Assembly: GCA_037446635.1 (NCBI GenBank) | Contig: JBBIIG010000004.1 | Coordinates: 18,943 to 82,942 of the forward strand | Direction of reading: 5' to 3' | Length of the DNA: 64,000 nt | DNA from: a bacterium | GTDB lineage: Bacteria; Zhuqueibacterota; Zhuqueibacteria; Oceanimicrobiales; Oceanimicrobiaceae | Part shown: positions 48,105 through 59,300 of the stretch, piece by piece | Numbering within the stretch: the stretch's first letter is position 1 | Layout: each line of letters starts with the position of its first letter | Position numbers and translations under genes: made by a program | The notes under the pieces: model-generated | What the model saw: the letters and a program-made list of their open reading frames with translations, nothing else | The model's database searches: none | What the model was told of the DNA's origin: nothing

Positions 48105-50126
48105 ATGAGGCTCAAAAAATCCTCTATGACAACTTTCCCTCTAACCCACCGGCGACTCGTCGCTGCCCTGGCGGTTTGGTTTGGAATTTTGGCGAGCAGC
48201 CTTTCAGCGCAGACATCCGAAGCGCCGGTCGATGGAATCGCCTACCTGAAATTGAACCTCCCAAAACTGGTTTTGAAGGACGCCAGTTTCGAGGTGAACA
48301 TTCAGGCGATGACCGGCGACAGCGCCCTCGCGCGGGCTTTTTCGGGAATCGCTCTCGTCTCCGGATTAGAAATCAAAACTTCCGCAAAAATTTATAAACG
48401 AATCGAGGGCATCGAATTTCGCGACGGCCGCGCAACGATTTCCAATGCCGCTATTCGCAAGACCGGCAGCCAGGCCGTAACGGTTGTACTTGATGGAATT
48501 CGCGCCGAGGCGCAAACGCGGGTCATCCCCGGCATCTTGAGCCTGCTGCCGCCGATCCTCGCTATTGCGCTGGCGTTCATCGCGCGGCAGGTGCTGCTCT
48601 CGCTGTTTTGCGGCGTCTGGTTAGGCAGCATGTTTGTTTTTGACTACAACCCGCTGCAGGGCTTTATCAAAACCGTTGACACCTATCTCGTGAAAGCGCT
48701 GGCCGATTCCAGCCACGCCTCGATTCTGATTTTTAGCATGACGTTGGGCGGGATGGTGGGCGTGATCTCCAAAGCCGGCGGCACGCAAGGCATCGTGCAG
48801 AAACTTTCGAAATTTGCCAAGAACCAGCGCGGCGGCCAACTGGCGACCTGGGCCATGGGGGTGCTGATTTTTTTTGATGATTACGCCAACACGCTCATCG
48901 TCGGCAACACCATGCGCCCGTTCACCGATCGCCTGCGCGTTTCTCGTGAAAAGCTTTCGTACATCGTGGACTCCACCTCGGCGCCCATCGCTTCGATTGC
49001 GTTGATTTCCACCTGGATCGGATTTCAAATCGGCCTGATCGATCAAGCGTTCGATGCCCTGAAAATCGAGCACAACGCCTACAATATTTTTCTGGAGTCG
49101 ATTCCGTTTTCTACTTACAGCATCCTGGCCGTTCTATTTGTGTTGGTCATCGCGTTGGCGCAGCGCGATTTTGGCCCTATGTATCGCGCCGAGATACGGG
49201 CGCTGCGCTTTGGCAAAGTTTTACGCGACGGCGCGCAACCCCTCACCGACAGCGCGGCGCTGGATATGACCGCCGACGAGCGCACGCCGCTGCGGTGGTA
49301 CAACGCCCTCATTCCAATCATAGTTGTGATCGGGGTGACCCTGGTGGGTTTGTATTTAGATGGCAGAACGTCGCTGGGAGAAGCAGCGGCCACGGCAAAA
49401 TTAGGAGATATCTTTGGGGCGGCGAACTCGTTTTCGGTTTTGATGTGGGCCGCCTTCACCGGCCTACTCACGGCGATGGCGTTGAGCGTGTCTCAAAAAA
49501 TTTTGACGCTCAACGAAACTCTCAACGCCGCGGTCAACGGCTACAAGTCGATGTTGATGGCCGCCATGATCTTGATCCTGGCGTGGGCCATCGGGGAGAT
49601 TTGTAAAGACCTGCACACCGCCGACTACGTCATCGAATTTAGCAAAGGCATTCTATCCCCCCACATCATTCCGTTCGTGACCTTCATCGTCGCGGCGTTC
49701 ATCAGTTTTTCCACCGGCACCTCGTGGGCGACCATGGCCATCCTGACGCCCATCGTCATTCCCATCGCCTACCAGCTTCCGTTGGAGGCCGGGCTCAACA
49801 GCACGTTGAGCCACGAAATTCTCATCGGCACGGTTGGCGCCGTGTTGTCAGGCTCGGTCATGGGCGATCACTGTTCTCCCATTTCCGATACCACGATTCT
49901 TTCTTCCATGTCGTCCGCTGCGGACCACGTGGATCATGTGCGCACGCAACTACCCTACGCCATTTTGGTGGGAATGGTAGCTTCGTTGAGCGGTTATCTT
50001 CCCAACGGCTGGGGCTTCAACACCTACCTGTCGCTGCTGGCTGGCGCGATCGCGCTCACGGCGATCGTTTTCATTTTTGGCAAACCTTCCGACCGAATTA
50101 CAGAGGGCGTCCAACCAAAAGCTTAA
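48105..50126 (+). CDS. NhaC-family Na+/H+ antiporter with an N-terminal extracytoplasmic extension
   Basis: Signal/TM, then ~12 TM helices with NhaC-like ..GGMVGVISKAGGTQGIV... The start is uncertain (48105 or 48126). Confidence 0.7.
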   Translation: MRLKKSSMTTFPLTHRRLVAALAVWFGILASSLSAQTSEAPVDGIAYLKLNLPKLVLKDASFEVNIQAMTGDSALARAFSGIALVSGLEIKTSAKIYKRIEGIEFRDGRATISNAAIRKTGSQAVTVVLDGIRAEAQTRVIPGILSLLPPILAIALAFIARQVLLSLFCGVWLGSMFVFDYNPLQGFIKTVDTYLVKALADSSHASILIFSMTLGGMVGVISKAGGTQGIVQKLSKFAKNQRGGQLATWAMGVLIFFDDYANTLIVGNTMRPFTDRLRVSREKLSYIVDSTSAPIASIALISTWIGFQIGLIDQAFDALKIEHNAYNIFLESIPFSTYSILAVLFVLVIALAQRDFGPMYRAEIRALRFGKVLRDGAQPLTDSAALDMTADERTPLRWYNALIPIIVVIGVTLVGLYLDGRTSLGEAAATAKLGDIFGAANSFSVLMWAAFTGLLTAMALSVSQKILTLNETLNAAVNGYKSMLMAAMILILAWAIGEICKDLHTADYVIEFSKGILSPHIIPFVTFIVAAFISFSTGTSWATMAILTPIVIPIAYQLPLEAGLNSTLSHEILIGTVGAVLSGSVMGDHCSPISDTTILSSMSSAADHVDHVRTQLPYAILVGMVASLSGYLPNGWGFNTYLSLLAGAIALTAIVFIFGKPSDRITEGVQPKA

Positions 50127-50648
50127 ACCGGCTTGCAACTGCCGTTAAAATAATTTTGCTTGTACCCGACGTAACGCTCCGCGGAGCGTTTGATTAAAGT
50201 AATCTCCTCCAAAGTCAGCGAGCGCTTGACAATTGCCGGTACCCCAGCCACTAACGAGTGCTCAGGAATGTTCTCGCCTTCGCGAATGAGCGCGCCAGCC
50301 GCCACCAGCGAAAATCTCCCGATGCGCGCGCCATCTAAAATTCGCGCCCCCATCCCGATCAAACAATCATCCTCGATGGTACAGCCGTGCAAGATGGCGG
50401 CGTGTCCGATCGTCACCCGGTTGCCAATTGTTAGTATGGACCTTTGATAAGTTACGTGCAGAGTGGCGTTGTCCTGAATGTTGGAGCGCTGGCCGATGCG
50501 GATGGGGTTGACGTCGCCGCGCGCGACAACATTAAACCAAACGCTGGAATCTTCGCCAATCTCCACGTCGCCGATAATGGTGGCGGTGGCGGCAATAAAA
50601 ACAGAGGGGTGAATTTTAGGGTGGGCGCCGTTATATGAAAAAAGCATG
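50123..50648 (-). CDS. Gamma-carbonic-anhydrase-like hexapeptide-repeat protein (YrdA/PaaY-like)
   Basis: ..IHPSVFIAATATIIGDVEIGEDSSVWFNVVARGDVNPIRIGQRSNIQDNATLH.. Left-handed beta-helix repeats. The ATG at 50648 is preferred. Confidence 0.75.
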
Positions 50649-50795
50649 GTTCCCTCCAGTTCGTGAACTCTTTGCAAAAAAGTCTCACGCAAATCCGCAA
50701 AGGCGCTAAGAAGCATAAAAAAAATCTTTGCGTCTCCGCGTCTTTGCGTGCGCTCTTTTTTGGTAGCGGCTTGGACTCTATTGTTGAAAATTGTT

Positions 50796-51755
50796 TCAGT
50801 CGAGGTTGTTGGCGATTTTAACCGCGCGCACCATGGCGTCCGCCACCAGTTCCGCAGCCGCGCTTCCGATGGTGGTAACGTTGCCCCGTTTCTGGCCAAC
50901 GGAAAGGCAAAACACCAGGTCGCCATCGAACGGGGTGTGCGCCGGCCGCGTCGCGCGGCCCAGCCCATCTTGCGCCATCTCCGCAATTTTAATGGCTTCT
51001 TCTTTTGTCAGCAAGGCATCGGTCGCGACGACCGCTAAGGTGGTGCTGCTGGCCGCGCGGAAGGGTTCCACCGCAAATGGCTCGATGGCGTGGGTTTTCA
51101 AATAGCGCTCGCAATTGATGAACTCGCCGGATTGCGGGTCGCGCGCGCCGGCGATAATTTCTCCGGAATAGGGGTCAACCACATCGCCGAACGAATTCAC
51201 CACCACCAGGCTGCCAACATACATCTCGCCCAATTTAAGGGAGTTGGTTCCCACTCCTCCTTTCATGCGAAATTCGTAGCCCGCTGCCTTTCCCACAGTG
51301 GCGCCGCAGCCCGCGCCGACTCGGCCCTCTTGTGGAGCTTTGGAACTGGCGTGCGCCGCGGCGGCGTATCCCATTTGCTTATCCGGGCGAATTTTAGCAT
51401 CGCCCTCCCGCAAATCAAAAATAACCGCCGCCGGCACAATGGGCACTTTAGTGATGCCCACGTCGTAGCCGATATTGCGCTCTTCGAGAAATTGCTGCAC
51501 CCCACCGGCGGCGTCCAGTCCAAAGGCGCTGCCCCCAGTCAGCAGAATCGCATGAATTTTAGGAACCAGCCGCACCGGCCGCAAAGTCTCGACTTCCCGG
51601 GTGCCGGGCGCGGAGCCGCGGATATCGACGCCAGCGACTGCGCCGTTCTCCGGCAAAATCACCGTGCAGCCGGTCATGCCGGCTTCGTTCTGGGCATGTC
51701 CGACTTTGACGCCGGGAACATCGCAAATGGAGCCGGTTTTGTTGATCTTATTCAA
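50796..51755 (-). CDS. DmpA/S58 (P1-family) Ntn-hydrolase peptidase (L-aminopeptidase/D-esterase-like)
   Basis: ..ICDVPGVKVGHAQNEAGMTGCTVILPE.., ..LLTGGSAFGLDAAGGV.., ..STTLAVVATDALL.. TTG start at 51755..51753 overlaps the ATPase stop. Confidence 0.75.
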   Translation of the reverse strand: MNKINKTGSICDVPGVKVGHAQNEAGMTGCTVILPENGAVAGVDIRGSAPGTREVETLRPVRLVPKIHAILLTGGSAFGLDAAGGVQQFLEERNIGYDVGITKVPIVPAAVIFDLREGDAKIRPDKQMGYAAAAHASSKAPQEGRVGAGCGATVGKAAGYEFRMKGGVGTNSLKLGEMYVGSLVVVNSFGDVVDPYSGEIIAGARDPQSGEFINCERYLKTHAIEPFAVEPFRAASSTTLAVVATDALLTKEEAIKIAEMAQDGLGRATRPAHTPFDGDLVFCLSVGQKRGNVTTIGSAAAELVADAMVRAVKIANNLD

Positions 51756-52909
51756 GACTCTTTCTCGGGATGGGATCGGAAAAGTTGGAACCGTTTCCTG
51801 AGAGGAGTTTTGCGGGAGGGCACTTCCAAGATCAAGCTGCTGTCGTTGAAGAAAAACAAATCGCCGATGACCAGACCGATGGATCGCCGCAGCGGCTTCC
51901 AGTTTTCGCGATAGGCGTAGGCATCGACTTTGGTGCCTTCGCGGCCTTTGGTGACCAGCCGCACGCGCTGGGGAAACTCGCGATTGATCATAAACGGCGA
52001 ATGGGTGGTGAAAATCAACTGATTTTTGATGGCGAGGTCTTCGATGACGCGCGTTAAATCTTTCTGGCCAGCGGGATGCAGATGGATGCCGGGCTCATCC
52101 AGCAGAAAAAAATATTCATTGGCTTTGGCCTCGAACGTTTGCGCGATAAAATTGATGTAAAAAGACAAGTACCAGCGGAAGCCCAGGCTGCGCGACTCCG
52201 GCGTGTCATACACGGTCGTGCCGTCGGAAATGTCGATGTACAAAACTTTGCCGTTGACGTTGAGCTTGATTTCGATGGTGGGTTCCTGCGACCAGACGCG
52301 GCGGATTTGCTGGGTGATGAGCCGGCCGGCTTCTTCGCTGGCGCGGCGGCCGCGCGTCGAATCTTCAAAGATGATTTCAAAATTATTTTGCAGCCCGCCG
52401 ATCTTGAGCAAATTTCTTTCGGTGAGAAAATTCTTGTCGCCGTTCAACAACGTCTCCAGCTCCACCCGATTCTTGATCAACGAAATGCTTTCGAAGTACA
52501 AAATTTTCGGCAGCAGCTCCAAAAATCGCCGCATGTTGAGAATTTTGATCTCTTCGTTGTTGGCGTAAACATGATAGTTCGAAAGTTCGGGGCCATCCTT
52601 TTTCACCAGGAATTTTTCCACGTCTTTAAACGCCTCGGAAATCGGCATCAAATTTCTTTTGTTGTCGCGCGAAAGCTGAGTGAACTCAAACGTGATTTCC
52701 GGACATTTGCCTTGATAGTAGTAATCGGAGTATTGGCAGGTGAGGTGGTTGGTAAATGGGAAATCCGGGCGAAACGACTCGAGGGCGCGCAGGAGATTGG
52801 TTTTGCCGCTTTCGTTGGCGCCAATCAGCACGCTCACTTTTGGATCCACGGGCAGAGTTAATTCAAAAATCGACCGAAAAGCTTTGACGTGCACACTGCT
52901 TATTAACAT
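51752..52909 (-). CDS. OLD-family-like ABC ATPase (AAA_15/AAA_21 type) lacking a Toprim/nuclease domain
   Basis: ..VHVKAFRSIFELTLPVDPKVSVLIGANESGKTNLLRALE.. (Walker A), ..FFLLDEPGIHLHP.. (Walker B/D-loop), ..FTTHSP.. (H-loop). 385 aa. Confidence 0.7.
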   Translation of the reverse strand: MLISSVHVKAFRSIFELTLPVDPKVSVLIGANESGKTNLLRALESFRPDFPFTNHLTCQYSDYYYQGKCPEITFEFTQLSRDNKRNLMPISEAFKDVEKFLVKKDGPELSNYHVYANNEEIKILNMRRFLELLPKILYFESISLIKNRVELETLLNGDKNFLTERNLLKIGGLQNNFEIIFEDSTRGRRASEEAGRLITQQIRRVWSQEPTIEIKLNVNGKVLYIDISDGTTVYDTPESRSLGFRWYLSFYINFIAQTFEAKANEYFFLLDEPGIHLHPAGQKDLTRVIEDLAIKNQLIFTTHSPFMINREFPQRVRLVTKGREGTKVDAYAYRENWKPLRRSIGLVIGDLFFFNDSSLILEVPSRKTPLRKRFQLFRSHPEKES

Positions 52910-53083
52910 GAATCATCCTTAATTAACGCGAGCTTAATATAAAGACGGGGCAAAACCAAAGCAAGAAAAATTCTTAAACCGCGATCGGTGGGAGCCAGCA
53001 GAATCGTTTAAACCCGCCTACGAAATTTAACACCGAAATACACCGAAAATATTTTTTGACTGGGTTCTGCTAACCTGAATGAT

Positions 53084-53131
53084 TTACCACGAAGATCATG
53101 AAGCTTTTATTTTTCGTGATCTTCGTGGTAA
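53084..53131. other. Long hairpin (19-bp stem with one T.G position, 10-nt loop) in the clpC / ATPase intergenic region
   Basis: TTACCACGAAGATCATGAA-gcttttattt-TTCGTGATCTTCGTGGTAA. No adjacent U-tract on either strand. Confidence 0.55.
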
Positions 53132-53192
53132 CATTCCGGCTCACGTCAATTCTGCGCTTCCAGTGTCATTCGGTGTTTTATTAAAAATGACG

Positions 53193-55682
53193 TTATCCTT
53201 CGATCTCTTGTTCTTTGGGTTTTTGTTTATTGCGGTTCGGGGCAACTTTGGTGATCTTTTTGCGCTCCACTTCCACAAACTCCAGCTCCTCGCCTTTTTT
53301 GCGCACCTGTATGCGGCTGCCTTCGGAGAATTTATTTTTGAGAATTTCTTCCGCAATCGGATCTTCCACATACTTTTGGATGGTGCGGCGCAGCGGCCGC
53401 GCGCCATACACCGGATCGAATCCGCGTTCCACCACGAATTCTTTGGCGCTCTTGGTGAGCTCCACTTCGATGGACATGTCTTCGACTTTCTTCAAAGTCT
53501 CGGCAATCACCACGTCCACGATTTGCAGCATGTGTTCTTTGGCCAGCGAACGGAAGACCACAATTTCATCGACGCGGTTGATGAATTCCGGATTAAAAAT
53601 GCGCTTGACCTCGTCCATGATTTTGTGGCGCATAGCCTCGTAGTCGATGTCGTCGCGGATGGCTGCGAACCCGATGCCGCCGCCTTTGCGGATTTCGCGC
53701 GCGCCGATGTTGGAGGTCATGATCAAAATAGTGTTGCGGAAATCCACGCGGCGGCCGAGGCCGTCGGTCAATTGGCCGTCATCCAAAATTTGCAGCAGGA
53801 TATTGAATACATCCGGATGGGCTTTTTCGATTTCATCAAACAAGACCACGCTGTAGGGGTGGCGGCGCACTTTTTCGGTGAGCTGCCCGCCCTCTTCGTA
53901 ACCGACGTATCCCGGAGGCGCGCCGGTCAAACGCGACACGGAGAATTTCTCCATGTACTCCGACATGTCGATGCGCACCAATGAATCTTCATCTTCAAAC
54001 AACGCGATTGCCAATTCTTTTGCCAATTGGGTTTTACCCACGCCGGTGGGGCCGAGAAAAATGAAGGAGCCGATGGGGCGATGCGGGTCTTTCAAGCCCG
54101 CGCGAGTGCGGCGGATGGCTTTGCTCAACAGCTTGATGGCGTCGTCCTGGCCAATGATGTGCCGCTTGAGGACGTCTTCCAAATTTAAAATCTTTTCCGA
54201 TTCCGATTGCGCCACTTTCTTCACCGGGATGCCGGTCATCATCGAAACTACTTCCGCGATATCATCTTCGGTGACGGTTGCGAGATAATCTTCTTCGGAA
54301 TCTTTCCACCTTCGCTTGGCGGCGTCCAATTTGCGGTTAAGCCGCTTTTCCTGATCACGCAAAATGGCGGCGCGCTCGAACTCCTGGGCTTTGATGACCG
54401 CGTCTTTGTCGCGGCGTACTTTTTTAATTTCTTCCTCCAGCTCGGTGATCTCTTTTGGCACCACAATGTTGGCAAGATGCACGCGCGCGCCGGCCTCGTC
54501 CAACACGTCGATGGATTTGTCGGGTAAAAAGCGATCGGTGATGTAGCGCTCCGAAAGTTTGACCGCGGCTTTGATGGCGCCGTCATCGTAGTAAACTTTG
54601 TGGTGTTTTTCGTAGCGATCTTTCAGTCCTTCCAAAATTTGCAGCGTCTCATCGGCGGAGGGCGGATCGACCATAATTTTCTGGAAGCGGCGCTCGAGCG
54701 CTCCGTCTTTTTCAATGTACTGGCGGAACTCGTCGAGGGTGGTGGCGCCGATACATTGCAGCTCGCCGCGCGCCAACGCCGGCTTGAACATATTGGAAGC
54801 ATCCAACGAGCCGGAAGCGCCGCCAGCGCCAACGATGGTGTGCAGCTCGTCAATAAACAAAATGACGTCTTTGGCGCGCTGCAGCTCGTTCATAATCGCC
54901 TTCATGCGTTCTTCGAACTGGCCGCGGTACTTGGTACCGGCGACGATGGCGCCCAGGTCTAGCGTCACCACGCGCTTGTTGTGAAGTATGCGCGGCACTT
55001 TGCGCTCGACGATTCGCAGCGCCAAGCCTTCGGCGATGGCGGTTTTGCCAACGCCCGGCTCGCCGATCAGCACCGGGTTGTTTTTCTTCCGGCGGCTGAG
55101 AATCTGCGCCACGCGCTGAATTTCATTGTCGCGGCCGATGATGGGATCGAGTTCGCCCTTGCGCGCCAGCTCGGTGAGATCGCGGCCAAAATGATCGAGG
55201 GCCGGGGTTTTTGATTTTTGTGGGTTGGATTCGCGGTTGCTGGGAGCGCCGCGCAAAATGTTTTCCAATTCTTCGCGCACGGTGTCGTAGGTCACGTCGT
55301 AGCTCATCAGCACTTGCGCGGCCACGCCGTCTTTTTCTTTCACCAATGCCAGCAGCAGGTGCTCGGTGCCGATGATATCGGATTTGTATTTTTCCGCTTC
55401 CACGTAAGCCATTTTCAAAATCTTTTCCGCGCGCTTGGTAAACGGGATGTTGCCAATGGTCATGGTATCGCCGCTCGACTTCACTGAGTCTTCGATGGAG
55501 CGTTTAATTTCATCGAGATCGCACCCCAGGTTGCGGAGAATTTCAACAGCGATGCCCTCCCCTTCCCGGATCAAACCCAATAACAAGTGCTCCGTCCCGA
55601 TATAATCGTGGCCTAAACGCAGCGCCTCCTCGCGGGAAAATTGAATGACCATTTGCACTCGGCTCGAAAAGTTATTCTTCAT
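53193..55682 (-). CDS. clpC: ATP-dependent Clp protease ATP-binding subunit ClpC
   Basis: 829 aa, Clp N-repeats, two AAA+ modules (..[10 protein letters not shown].., ..GPTGVGKT..), UVR-like middle domain. Confidence 0.9.
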
Positions 55683-55756
55683 AGGTTAAGACTCCATGGC
55701 TAAAAATCATTAAATCGCTTCTGACAACAACAATATTAAAATAATTTTGCTTCCAG

Positions 55757-56824
55757 TCAATTAATTTTATCTTTTAAAAATTCTCGGATAAATCGCGCGC
55801 GATAAACGTCGCGTTCTTCCGATTGCAAATTCCTTTTAAACACTTTTTGCAAATGCGCCGGCTGAACCAGCACCGTCAACTGATTTAAAGCGGCGCGGGT
55901 AATCTTTTTTAGAATTCCTGATTCCTTCCCCAGGCGAATCGCGGAAATTAGGTTCAGAGATTCCAACGTGCTCATCATGCGGGCGTTGGTCAAAAGTCCG
56001 ATCGCCCGATAAACGGAATCTTCCAATTTGAGCTTGTCGTTGGCGGCCAAATCTGCGCGCGCCGCCCGCTCCATCGCAACGATTTTTTCGGAGACGTCGA
56101 GCATGCGTTTGATGACCCCCTTTTCCGTCAACCCCAGGGTGAGCTGGTTGGAGATTTGAAAAATGTTTCCCACGGAATCGCTGCCCTCGCCGTAAAATCC
56201 GCGCACGGCAATTTCCGAGGTGGGCAAATCATTCAAAACTTTGTTGATTTTTTCGCTGAGCGCCAGCGCCGGCAAATGAATGAAGATCGAGACCCGCAGG
56301 CCGGTTCCGAGATTGGTGGGGCAGGCCGTCAGGTAACCAAATTGATTCGAGAAGGAAAATTCTAATTGTGCTCCCAATTCATCATCCACGGCGCTGATGA
56401 GCTTCCAGGCTTTCTGAATGCCCAAGCCGGCTTCCAGGGCCTGGATGCGCAGATGGTCTTCTTCGTTTACCATGATGCTGACCGCCTCTTCTGCAGACAC
56501 GATCAACAACGCCGGCTTTTTGCTGGCGACGAACTGCGGGCTGGCGAGGCGGCGTTCCACCAAAAATCGCGCCTCCAATTCCGTGAAGCGCCCGATCTCC
56601 AGGAAGCGGGCGCCGTCTAAAAGCTTGGAGTGATCGCAGGCGGACTTCACTTTTTCAATCACCCGATTCAACACGTCGCGATTGGCGCGGTTGGGAAAAG
56701 GCAGGCCTGCGAGGTTACGCGCCAGGCGGATGCGCGAAGAAATGATGACGTCCGAATACGCATCCTCATCGCTTAACCAATTTCCAAAATTAAATAAATC
56801 TTCTTTTGAGGTAGCCGGCTTCAT
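55757..56824 (-). CDS. mcsB: Protein arginine kinase McsB (ATP:guanido phosphotransferase)
   Basis: ..VIISSRIRLARNLAG.PFP.., phosphagen-kinase C-domain motifs. Directly upstream of clpC. Confidence 0.85.
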   Translation of the reverse strand: MKPATSKEDLFNFGNWLSDEDAYSDVIISSRIRLARNLAGLPFPNRANRDVLNRVIEKVKSACDHSKLLDGARFLEIGRFTELEARFLVERRLASPQFVASKKPALLIVSAEEAVSIMVNEEDHLRIQALEAGLGIQKAWKLISAVDDELGAQLEFSFSNQFGYLTACPTNLGTGLRVSIFIHLPALALSEKINKVLNDLPTSEIAVRGFYGEGSDSVGNIFQISNQLTLGLTEKGVIKRMLDVSEKIVAMERAARADLAANDKLKLEDSVYRAIGLLTNARMMSTLESLNLISAIRLGKESGILKKITRAALNQLTVLVQPAHLQKVFKRNLQSEERDVYRARFIREFLKDKIN

Positions 56825-57351
56825 CGCAACATTCCATTTTCCAGGTCGCTTTTATCGATCTCGCGCTCGGCGTCGCGAATAATATCCCGCAGCTGCGCCG
56901 CCTTTTCAAAATTTTCGGATTTGATCGCCCGTTCCAATTGCGTCCTGAAATTTTTAATCTTAGAATGATCGACGACGCGCCGAAACGATTTCGGGCAACT
57001 GCCGATGTGCTGGTTGCTGCCGTGAATGCGCCGCAATACCAGGTTTAAATCTTCCAAGAAAATATCGTAGCATTGGCCGCAGCCGAGGAGTCCGGTTTTC
57101 TCAAACGTTTCCCAGCTCGTGCCGCAGCCCGGACAGCGCCGCTTATCATTCGATTGTTCGCGCCGCAGAGTATACTCTCCCAGCAACTCGGCGATAAAAT
57201 TTCCAAACATCTGCGGCAGGGCGCTGAAGGGATTATCGACGCCCTTCTGTTCCGCGCAGTCCTTACACAAATTCACTTCGATTTTTTTGCCATTAATCGT
57301 GTGCGCGATTTTGATGGCCGCGCTGTTGACATGGCAGACCTGACACAGCAT
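56821..57351 (-). CDS. mcsA: McsA (activator of McsB; zinc-finger and UVR domain protein)
   Basis: ..CQVCHVN..CKDCAEQ.., ..CPGCGTSW..CGQCY.. Cys4 fingers. C-terminal UVR ..FEKAAQLRDIIR.. Confidence 0.8.
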   Translation of the reverse strand: MLCQVCHVNSAAIKIAHTINGKKIEVNLCKDCAEQKGVDNPFSALPQMFGNFIAELLGEYTLRREQSNDKRRCPGCGTSWETFEKTGLLGCGQCYDIFLEDLNLVLRRIHGSNQHIGSCPKSFRRVVDHSKIKNFRTQLERAIKSENFEKAAQLRDIIRDAEREIDKSDLENGMLR

Positions 57352-57352
57352 C

Positions 57353-58057
57353 TCAAACGATCTGATTTAGTTGTTCCCGTTTAATTTGGCCGTCAAACAA
57401 CTCAATTACTTTATCGGCATTTTCCGCCAGTTCAAGATTATGAGTTACAATTATGAATGTTCGATTATCCTTGCGGCTCAATTTCCACAGCAAATCGTGC
57501 AGCGCCTGGCTGTTGGCCTGATCAAGATTGCCCGAGGGCTCGTCGGCCAGCACAATTTTGGGATTGTTCATTAGCGCCCTGGCCACGGCCACGCGCTGCA
57601 GCTCGCCGCCGGATAACTCCCCGGGGCGATGGCTTAAACGGTGCTCCAAACCCACTTCACTCAATAAAAACCGCGCACGCACGCTAATTTCTTCCTTCGG
57701 TTTGCCGGCGATTAGAGCCGGCATCATCACGTTTTCCAACGCGCTGAACTCCGGCAGCAGATGATGAAACTGAAAAACGAAGCCCACGGTCTGGTTGCGA
57801 AAATGGGATAACTCGCTATCGCTAAAACCGTCGAGACTCGTGCCGTCGATCATCACGGCGCCGCTGGAGGGCCGATCTAATGCGCCGAGAATATGCAGCA
57901 GCGTGCTTTTACCCACGCCAGAGTGTCCGACGATGGCGACGATCTGGCCCTGGTTCACTTCCAAATTTATACCTTTAAGAACATGCACCCGGCGCGTTCC
58001 GGACTGATAAACTTTGTGGAGCCCGCGGGCCACCAAAATTGCGCCATTTGCTCTCAT
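57353..58057 (-). CDS. lolD: Lipoprotein-release ABC transporter ATP-binding protein LolD
   Basis: ..GHSGVGKSTLL.., ..LSGGELQRVAVARAL.., ..LADEPSGNLD.. Adjacent to LolC/E. Confidence 0.85.
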   Translation of the reverse strand: MRANGAILVARGLHKVYQSGTRRVHVLKGINLEVNQGQIVAIVGHSGVGKSTLLHILGALDRPSSGAVMIDGTSLDGFSDSELSHFRNQTVGFVFQFHHLLPEFSALENVMMPALIAGKPKEEISVRARFLLSEVGLEHRLSHRPGELSGGELQRVAVARALMNNPKIVLADEPSGNLDQANSQALHDLLWKLSRKDNRTFIIVTHNLELAENADKVIELFDGQIKREQLNQIV

Positions 58058-58058
58058 G

Positions 58059-59300
58059 CTACTCGTAACGGATGGCCTCCACCGGATCGAGCCGGGCGGC
58101 GCGGCGCGCCGGGTAAACCGTCGCCAGAAAACACAACGCAATAGCCGCCGCTGCGATCATAATAAAATCGCTTTGCTTCATTAAAATCGGCAGCGCGCTG
58201 ATAATATATACATCCGGCGGCAGCGAAAAAAACTGGTATTTTTCCTGCGCCCAACAGAGGGCGAACCCGATAGCACACCCCAGCGCCGTGCCCACCACGC
58301 CGCCAATCAACCCCTCGAACATAAAAATTTTCATGATGCTGGCAGAGGACGCGCCCATCGATTTTAAGATGCCGATCTCTTTGGTTTTCTCCAGCACGAT
58401 CATGATCAGCGTGCTCACAATGTTGAACGCCGCCACCATGATGATCAAACTAAGAATAATAAACGCCGCCCACTTTTCGATTTTCATCCACGAGAAAAGA
58501 TTTTTATTCATATCAAACCAAGTAATCGTGGCGTAAGGGTACCCTAACAATTGCTCGATGCGTTTTGAAACCGCTTCGGCCTGGTCGAGATCATCCAACT
58601 TGATTTCCAAACCGGTGACGGCGTCTTTCATATCGAACAGCTTCTGTGCTTCACGAAGCGAAATATAAGCAAAGACATCGTCAAATTCAAATATGCCAGT
58701 TTCAAAATAACCGGCGACCTCGAAGGTCTTCAAATTAGGAATTTTCGACATGATGGGCGAGATGCCGCTGGGGCTGAGAATTTGCACGCGGTCGCCCAAA
58801 CCCACCGTTAACTTGTCTGCCAGATACCGCCCTAACACAATGCCGGGCAGGGTGCGCTGTCCATTCGCGCCTTCGATTTCGCCGATGTTAAACGCGCCAA
58901 ACACCACGTCCTCTTCGATATCCGAAACCTCGCCGACGGTTTGAGGATCGACGCCCTTTATTACTACCCCCGATTTCTTGTTTTTGGAGATGATGAGGCC
59001 TTTTTCGTTGACGTACGGAGAAACGCCGATGATGTGCGGGAGATGGCGAATCCGCTCGCGCAGATTTTCGTGATCTTCCAGGCTTTCATAATGATATTTG
59101 CGCAGCTCGATGTGCGCGCCAAACCCGATGATGCGCGACCGCACTTCGCTTTCAAAGCCATTCATGATCGAGAGCACGACAATCAGCGCGGCCACGCCGA
59201 TCATCACCCCCAAAATGGAAATGTAATTAATCAAAGAGATGAAGCCGGTGCGGCGCTTGGAACGCAAGTAGCGATTGGCAATAAATAATTCGTAAGACAT
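58059..59300 (-). CDS. Lipoprotein-release permease LolC/LolE (FtsX/MacB-like)
   Basis: 413 aa. N-terminal TM, periplasmic MacB-like domain, C-terminal FtsX 3-TM bundle. Confidence 0.85.
   Translation of the reverse strand: MSYELFIANRYLRSKRRTGFISLINYISILGVMIGVAALIVVLSIMNGFESEVRSRIIGFGAHIELRKYHYESLEDHENLRERIRHLPHIIGVSPYVNEKGLIISKNKKSGVVIKGVDPQTVGEVSDIEEDVVFGAFNIGEIEGANGQRTLPGIVLGRYLADKLTVGLGDRVQILSPSGISPIMSKIPNLKTFEVAGYFETGIFEFDDVFAYISLREAQKLFDMKDAVTGLEIKLDDLDQAEAVSKRIEQLLGYPYATITWFDMNKNLFSWMKIEKWAAFIILSLIIMVAAFNIVSTLIMIVLEKTKEIGILKSMGASSASIMKIFMFEGLIGGVVGTALGCAIGFALCWAQEKYQFFSLPPDVYIISALPILMKQSDFIMIAAAAIALCFLATVYPARRAARLDPVEAIRYE

Follow-up and report, generated by a model that had tools for sequence, protein, structure and literature searches.

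Introduction

To our knowledge, proteins of the OLD family have been studied almost entirely as anti-phage nucleases. The stand-alone (Class 1) members, such as phage P2 Old and the OLD protein of Thermus scotoductus (TsOLD, 6P74), possess an N-terminal ATP-binding cassette (ABC) ATPase of the AAA_15/AAA_21 type with an inserted domain. Classes 2, 3 and 4 are recognized by their genomic context, according to criteria summarized in PMC10568477 and PMC12796447; they comprise Gabija (GajA–GajB), the retron effectors and PARIS AriA, respectively, the latter being accompanied by a separate Toprim/DUF4435 nuclease, AriB. The only described housekeeping member that we found is Cran1, an archaeal protein whose nickase domain is needed; it represents the clade U11 OLD ATPase–nickases of Sulfolobales and is an active nickase that keeps its Toprim domain (PMC12796447). 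Here we analyse a bacterial DNA stretch of 64,000 nucleotides (nt), hereafter the window, in whose positions all coordinates are given. It encodes a Toprim-less OLD-family ABC ATPase of 385 residues (51752..52909, minus strand, ATG start) followed by a 319-residue S58/DmpA ('P1 family') N-terminal nucleophile (Ntn) amidohydrolase of the NylC/ThnT subgroup (50796..51755, minus strand). The explanation that we favour, with a probability of roughly 0.55, is that the ATPase is a domesticated, nuclease-less OLD protein, vertically fixed in a KSB1/Calditrichota-type lineage, which would serve as a cellular clamp or sensor and be operonic with an ordinary amidohydrolase.

The window protein shares with the Class 1 proteins the N-terminal ATPase with its inserted domain, and the linker and first Toprim strand can still be recognized in the window protein; the latter, however, lacks the Toprim domain beyond that strand, is confined to one lineage, evolves slowly and is usually followed by an S58 gene. 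The Class 2 context is not matched, since the downstream gene encodes a Peptidase_S58 protein and helicases are not among the recurrent neighbours in the 80 loci described below. Neither is that of Class 3: no reverse transcriptase was present among the neighbours examined, an Rfam match is absent, and the NCBIfam retron Eco8 effector model scored 53 bits against a cut-off of 250. Septu (PtuA–PtuB) is not matched either, the neighbour being S58 rather than HNH and the NCBIfam PtuA score reaching 44 bits against 500. PARIS AriA resembles the window ATPase in being a nuclease-less ATPase that precedes a second gene, but here the partner is an Ntn amidohydrolase, no Toprim open reading frame (ORF) was found nearby, and the family was found neither on phages nor in defence islands. 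PADLOC did return an 'AriA' match; however, its models comprise 373 and 304 positions, as compared with 374 and 304 for Pfam AAA_15 and AAA_21, and judged by these lengths they look like copies of the generic Pfam profiles. In contrast to anti-phage systems in general, the window family is limited to one lineage, single-copy, embedded in housekeeping synteny, native in its GC content at third codon positions (GC3) and found on none of the viral contigs.

Assignment to a known defence system was considered and ruled out: the PADLOC and NCBIfam matches of the ATPase are generic and below the equivalog cut-offs, and the S58 protein has no match. Cran1, like the window ATPase, is conserved within a lineage, vertically inherited and apparently recruited to a cellular role. 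It differs in being archaeal and in having an active Toprim nickase, whereas the window ATPase is bacterial, nuclease-less and outside that clade. Entries from KSB1/Calditrichota were not found in the supplementary files of PMC12796447 that were examined.

Loss of the Toprim domain

A homologue search with the ATPase yielded 791 matches, the best 120 of which were used for length and identity figures. These proteins are 324–412 residues long (most of them 376–392), 65–100% identical to the window ATPase, and come from metagenome-assembled genomes (MAGs) labelled KSB1, Calditrichaeota/Calditrichota or Zhuqueibacterota. When one genome per species was scanned, the family was recovered in 119 genomes, and 80 loci from 80 different assemblies were kept for the counts reported here; across these 80 species, identity ranges from 59 to 100% at a length of ~380 residues. 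Clustering of the library at 50% identity leaves a single full-length representative of the family (60% identity). The next matches beyond the family are only 30–42% identical and considerably longer (580–700 residues). They are stand-alone OLD nucleases, and eight of the nine longer relatives scanned contain the OLD-like_TOPRIM domain (Pfam, E ≤ 0.001).

The point at which the two groups part was located in an alignment of the ATPase family with 56 full-length relatives. In the relatives, the sequence GDSFF..LLVEGxSDxIY is followed by a DSD/DGD metal-binding motif. The family instead reads GDLFFFNDSxLILEVPSRK and reaches its stop ~20 poorly conserved residues further on, the DxD motif being gone. 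Since the relatives run on to the DxD motif where the family ends, the latter has been truncated after the first Toprim strand. The vestige of that strand, LILEVPS (L359–S365, with E362 and P364; 51815..51835, minus strand), aligns with LLVEGxSD of the OLD relatives, its glutamate falling opposite the catalytic Glu of their Toprim domain; the glutamate is retained in 74 and the proline in 73 of the 80 family members. Judged by its sequence architecture, the window protein is thus an OLD-derived ATPase and not an OLD nuclease. Nuclease activity would not be expected of it, given the absence of the Toprim domain beyond strand 1 and of the DxD motif. A Pfam scan of the 385 residues likewise detected neither Toprim nor HNH nor any other effector domain. 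An earlier reading of the window made from the sequence alone (the sequence-only reading) had described an OLD-type ATPase without a nuclease, carrying GANESGKT, FFLLDEPGIHLHP and TTHSP, and this description holds.

The nuclease could in principle have been split off as a separate protein. Six-frame searches of the window and of 85 family loci with a hidden Markov model (HMM) built from 54 Toprim-containing C-terminal regions gave nothing at E ≤ 1, and therefore a split OLD-type Toprim partner is not located nearby, although a very divergent DUF4435 could escape detection by this OLD-type model. The segment that follows EVPS in the window protein (residues 366–385; 51752–51814, minus strand) is basic, with little conservation and a length that differs from species to species, and the ATPase stop is usually no more than a few bases away from the S58 start. 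Such a tail would be compatible with read-through following loss of the Toprim domain by deletion.

Two of the nearest full-length relatives, P0255 from Chloroflexota and P0246 from Bathyarchaeota, have neither a helicase nor a retron gene beside them and are therefore Class-1-like. P0246 (locus L193, 2566–12179) adjoins HEPN/nucleotidyltransferase, MazE-like and TIR_2 genes, a defence-island-like neighbourhood unlike the housekeeping settings of the Toprim-less family.

Conservation of the ATPase head

The remaining half of the protein matches Pfam AAA_15 (3.8e-26) and AAA_21 (1.2e-16) and retains the complete set of ABC motifs, all of them encoded on the minus strand. The Walker A motif or P-loop, GANESGKT (residues 30–37; 52799..52822), has its lysine (K36) in 79 of the 79 members covering the position. 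The same holds for the glutamine (Q59) of the Q-loop, CQYS (52727..52738), which lies in a stretch, T57–S61, that is invariant in the family alignment. An ABC signature-like motif, SLGFR (52175..52189), displays its serine (S241) and glycine (G243) in 80/80 members and is nearly invariant in the full-length OLD relatives too. D271 and E272 of the Walker B and D-loop region, FFLLDEPGIHLHP (residues 267–279; 52073..52111), are found in all 80, as is H303 of the H-loop, TTHSP (residues 301–305; 51995..52009). The FFLLDEPGIHLHP region is the part of the ATPase that best matches TsOLD and PtuA. By sequence, the ATPase accordingly keeps all residues for ATP binding, for engagement of a second head through the signature and for ATP hydrolysis.

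A further patch, TRGRR (residues 185–189 within FEDSTRGRRASEEA; 52343..52357, minus strand), is located in the helical insertion and is invariant in the family alignment, with R188 and R189 present in 80/80 and R186 in 79/80 members. In the AlphaFold2 model it sits in helices 177–205, and a binding role may be proposed for it. The model as a whole (mean predicted local distance difference test score 88.8) has an SMC/Rad50-type head, its confidence being low from residue 345 onwards; the conserved C-terminal peptide is predicted to be flexible. Among solved structures, TsOLD (6p74, the best match in the PDB, 1.3e-12) and GajA are nearest in sequence. Fold searches returned generic SMC, Rad50, PtuA and OLD heads, and found no specific match that would account for the insertion domain.

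Inheritance and genomic setting

Several observations show that the ATPase behaves as a core gene. The ratio of nonsynonymous to synonymous substitution rates (dN/dS) is 0.029 for the ATPase and 0.084 for the S58 gene; both were taken against the closest relative with dS near saturation, so that the values are approximate. At the same loci, mean pairwise identity is 0.66–0.71 for the ATPase, as compared with 0.57 for S58, 0.48 for McsB and 0.79–0.83 for ClpC. The ATPase therefore evolves more slowly than S58 and McsB and faster than ClpC. It is present once per assembly in 80/80 loci, and its pairwise identities correlate with those of ClpC (rank correlation 0.85), as expected under vertical co-inheritance. 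Members of the family were not found on the viral contigs of IMG/VR, where the matches were generic OLD proteins at 24–35% identity, apart from a 45-residue fragment match.

The genes that recur around the ATPase are mcsA–mcsB–clpC, lolCD, lysS, nadB, spoIID, prfB, alr and Tex, together with glycosyltransferases, a gamma-carbonic-anhydrase-like gene and an NhaC-type antiporter, and no defence genes were found in the ~90 neighbourhoods examined. The ATPase is under strong purifying selection, vertically inherited and core-gene-like. The sequence-only reading had raised the prospect of a defence-island setting, for which these housekeeping flanks, the absence of the family from IMG/VR and the native codon composition give no support.

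That reading had also placed the GC content of the pair 5–8 points below that of its flanks. In fact the ATPase (50.3%) lies ~4 points below and S58 (60.2%) ~6 points above clpC (54.2%) and the gamma-carbonic-anhydrase gene (53.8%). GC3 is 0.67 in the ATPase and 0.69 in S58, within the range of the neighbours (0.62–0.70), and the GC difference thus reflects amino-acid composition rather than foreign origin. A foreign origin of the pair, as low GC might have indicated, was ruled out by this agreement of GC3 with the flanks.

The ATPase–S58 gene pair

Both ORFs are as the sequence-only reading had claimed, and so is their overlap, which is present in TCTTGAATAAG. The ATPase stop codon TGA (51754..51752) and the S58 start codon TTG (51755..51753) share 2 nt inside the tetranucleotide TTGA (51752..51755, minus strand). 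No other in-frame start would retain the conserved S58 N-terminus, the Pfam match beginning at residue 9 and the next start being M27; the 95% identical homologue P0121 is called with the same TTG. S58 lies directly downstream of the ATPase on the same strand in 62 of the 80 species. For the 54 pairs with both ends measurable, starts being mechanical first-start calls, the stop-to-start distance is ≤0 in 18, 1–15 nt in 21 and 16–159 nt in 15. We infer that the pair is co-transcribed, and in this genome it is probably translationally coupled.

The co-occurrence of the ATPase with a DmpA-type gene, which the sequence-only reading had noted at one locus, extends to most of the ATPase-carrying species sampled. 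The pair was found in at least 10 upstream and at least 12 downstream contexts, and it must therefore have been kept together through many rearrangements. When sampling started from S58, the ATPase was upstream of 3/3 proteins of the S58 clade, each in a different setting. A description of an AAA_15-plus-S58 pair was not found in the searchable literature. In this sense the uncharacterized two-gene system proposed earlier stands as a conserved, tight and apparently undescribed operon, but not as a defence or stress module, for which no support was obtained.

Adjacency is nevertheless dispensable for the ATPase. In 18 of the 80 species S58 is missing from the locus, and the same flanks occur with and without it, as in nadB–ATPase–(S58)–M20 peptidase and spoIID–ATPase–(S58)–sigma-54 activator. 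These identical flanks imply at least three clean deletions of S58 in which the ATPase was retained. Neighbourhood is, to this extent, not conserved. In the species without an adjacent S58 gene, the ATPase motifs are all kept and the C-terminal tail motif is unchanged; across the family, conservation of the tail does not track the presence of S58. The ATPase does not depend on the adjacent S58 gene. Mirror-tree comparisons were not discriminating, the Pearson and Spearman coefficients being 0.63 and 0.29 for ATPase–S58 and 0.59 and 0.85 for ATPase–ClpC.

The S58 hydrolase

The Peptidase_S58 match of the downstream protein covers residues 9–317 (8.9e-47; 160.5 bits against a cut-off of 23.9). 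The matches in the PDB include the nylon-6,6 hydrolase 9cxr (3.8e-65), ThnT (4e-54) and NylC (2.5e-31). ThnT is the pantetheine-cleaving hydrolase of thienamycin biosynthesis. Similarity to the NylC/ThnT/nylon-hydrolase subgroup is full-length and extends to the predicted autoprocessing site, S237/T238 (51042..51047, minus strand), with a Thr nucleophile at the position homologous to the N/T site of ThnT and 9cxr. T238 is invariant (59/59 relatives). Unlike the subgroup, the window copy follows an OLD-type ATPase, as is the rule in this lineage, and has a Ser before the nucleophile (S237, 51045–51047), where 57 of the 59 relatives, P0121 included, have Asn. The serine corresponds to a single-base change, which may slow self-processing or might be an assembly error.

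The subgroup is by no means restricted to ATPase-carrying genomes. Metagenomes were scanned with the S58 alignment as query, which yielded 80 loci at 47–65% identity; the ATPase is upstream of S58 in four of them, all KSB1-type, and the other 76 are without it. Orthologues without the ATPase are common, at 48–58% identity, and pantothenate/coenzyme A (CoA) genes adjoin S58 in 22 of the 76 unlinked loci. To this degree, S58 resembles metabolic enzymes that have no ATPase neighbour. The typical order at unlinked loci is S58–DUF2520–panD–panB–panC, and others carry an energy-coupling factor (ECF) S-component and/or coaX (type III pantothenate kinase). Such clusters were observed at L118 (258–4210), L168 (2–3915), L141 (4001–6882), L126, L119, L131, L172 and L190, and S58 loci with both the ECF S-component and coaX at L149, L153 and L164. 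The pantothenate/CoA neighbours, together with the similarity to ThnT, suggest a function of this S58 subgroup in the metabolism of pantothenate or pantetheine; a paper reporting such a link was not found in the searchable literature.

On a neighbour-joining tree, 62 ATPase-linked S58 proteins group in a single clade together with 2 unlinked ones. Extra constraint specific to this clade, such as an interface signature would produce, was not seen when linked proteins were compared with unlinked orthologues: clade-specific conserved columns number 2 and 2, and conserved columns 94 and 89, respectively. Given this lack of extra constraint and the metabolic context elsewhere, the S58 gene seems to be, in this lineage, an ordinary orthologue of a widespread amidohydrolase whose role is probably metabolic.

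The hexapeptide (gamma-carbonic-anhydrase) ORF listed downstream (50123–50986, minus strand, 287 residues) appears to overlap the 3′ end of S58. Its homologues have only ~175–180 residues and begin at the equivalent of MLFSYNG, which would place the start near 50647. The 5′ end is thus over-extended by first-start calling, and the apparent overlap is an artefact.

Proposed origin and role of the pair

The favoured explanation may be outlined as follows. The ancestor would have been similar to a stand-alone (Class 1) OLD nuclease, from which the Toprim domain was lost just past its first strand; the remaining ATPase half would then have been fixed and passed on vertically in the KSB1/Calditrichota-type lineage. 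The protein could act as an ATP-driven dimerizing clamp or sensor that binds nucleic acid or a protein partner without cutting, in a manner comparable to the heads of SMC, Rad50 and RecF or to the chromosomal OLD protein Cran1, and its role would be cellular rather than anti-phage. A precedent for a vertically inherited, non-defence OLD protein exists in Cran1 of Sulfolobales (PMC12796447). The downstream gene would encode a self-processing amidohydrolase of the NylC/ThnT type, and the tight junction between the two genes might be a scar left when the Toprim domain was deleted. Reliance of the hydrolase on the ATPase's expression signals, which would itself preserve adjacency, could account for the persistence of the operon, perhaps together with a physiological setting shared by both proteins. 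An unrelated metabolic coupling of the two genes, to which the sequence-only reading had alluded as a hedge, is a live option.

Several points weigh against this explanation. Adjacency in 62/80 loci, with a gap of ≤15 nt in 39/54 pairs, often marks interacting proteins. The hydrolase might dock onto the conserved C-terminal peptide, which has low confidence in the structural model. Most of the 18 genomes in which S58 is not adjacent are MAGs, and the gene may be located elsewhere in them. Moreover, the family counts cover only ATPase-carrying genomes of the lineage, and the selection estimates are subject to the saturation of dS mentioned above.

These points lead to the main alternative, namely that the two proteins form a machine in which the ATPase scaffolds, sequesters or gates S58, and ATP or a ligand releases or activates it, according to the logic of PARIS AriA–AriB. 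We regard this as possible but rather unlikely. Its role could be cellular, for instance in peptide or cofactor turnover under stress. The constancy of the arrangement argues for it: S58, when present, invariably comes next after the ATPase in the same orientation (62/80 species, in no fewer than 10 upstream and 12 downstream contexts), the ATPase is upstream of 3/3 S58-clade proteins sampled from the S58 side, 39 of 54 junctions are overlaps or gaps of ≤15 nt, and monophyly of the 62 ATPase-linked S58 proteins is broken by just 2 unlinked members. The conserved C-terminal peptide of the ATPase, of low predicted order, could provide a dock, and AriA offers a precedent of a Toprim-less OLD-type ATPase holding an effector (PMC11464382). 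On the other hand, the ATPase has been kept, with its tail and motifs unchanged, after at least three clean S58 deletions, S58 displays no extra clade-specific constraint relative to its ATPase-free orthologues, and the ATPase is the more conserved of the two proteins. The tight junction, for its part, can be attributed to loss of the Toprim domain by deletion. The more specific proposal, that ATPase and S58 associate physically and that the amidohydrolase is governed by engagement of the heads upon ATP turnover or by a sensed ligand, is about equally doubtful. If true, an SMC/OLD-type ABC ATPase would here be coupled to a self-processing hydrolase, a combination not known before, and the sequester-and-release logic of PARIS would have been adopted for an enzyme other than a nuclease, in a cellular or cryptically immune role.

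It is improbable, in our view, that the pair is a fixed anti-phage or abortive-infection module, with the OLD-type ATPase as sensor and the S58 peptidase as effector. The closest sequence relatives of the ATPase are, admittedly, the OLD, Gabija, Septu and retron ATPases, and P0246, one of the nearest full-length relatives, adjoins HEPN/nucleotidyltransferase, MazE and TIR genes. Lamassu-type systems likewise pair SMC-like ATPases with varied effectors, proteases included. Against this stand the absence of defence genes from all of the ~90 neighbourhoods, the housekeeping synteny, vertical inheritance and single copy, and the failure to find the family on the viral contigs of IMG/VR. None of the PADLOC models covers the S58 partner, and the NCBIfam defence equivalogs score far under their cut-offs (53 against 250 and 44 against 500 bits). 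A dN/dS of ~0.03 denotes a very slow evolution, unlike that of arms-race genes, and S58 orthologues elsewhere are metabolic by context. Finally, that the ATPase ORF is a decaying, functionless remnant of an OLD nuclease, as its truncated architecture ending inside the Toprim domain might suggest, is hardly credible in the face of its uniform length (most ~376–392 residues), its 59–100% identity over 80 species, its invariant catalytic residues and its dN/dS of ~0.03.

If the ATPase is indeed a domesticated OLD protein, it represents a Toprim-less, lineage-fixed OLD ATPase and hardly a defence module. Despite loss of the nuclease, the ATPase half is nearly unchanged across the lineage, and the OLD ATPase module would therefore have a useful activity of its own. 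The window ATPase would then provide a natural minimal system in which to study what the OLD ATPase senses or binds, and a clear bacterial case of the domestication of a defence-type protein. The conserved operon makes the S58 amidohydrolase a concrete candidate partner. It is also tempting to extend the pantothenate/CoA context to the large S58 family, known mostly for hydrolysis of nylon and beta-peptides, for which it suggests a physiological role.

Expression signals and upstream genes

The spacer between clpC and the ATPase (52910–53192) comprises 283 nt and is AT-rich (43–46% GC). It contains, on the minus strand, the sequence TATATT (52941–52936) and a Shine–Dalgarno-like AAGGA (52920–52916) located 6 nt before the ATG; these elements (52916..52941) are possible expression signals of the ATPase's own. 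A promoter and terminator scan, uninformative for an FCB-type lineage, found no consensus sigma-70 site on the coding strand of the spacer and no terminator on that strand from clpC through the ATPase and S58 to the gamma-carbonic-anhydrase gene. The pair may be transcribed from its own promoter or by read-through from clpC. Rfam matches and tRNAs are absent from the region and from the window, a single sub-threshold miRNA match being noise.

Upstream of the spacer (53193–58141, minus strand) lie a lolD-like ABC ATPase gene and then mcsA, mcsB (protein arginine kinase) and clpC. This arrangement is found directly upstream of the ATPase in 37 of the 80 species. Quality control based on arginine phosphorylation by McsAB–ClpC is best known from Firmicutes; the module is conserved here in an FCB-type lineage.

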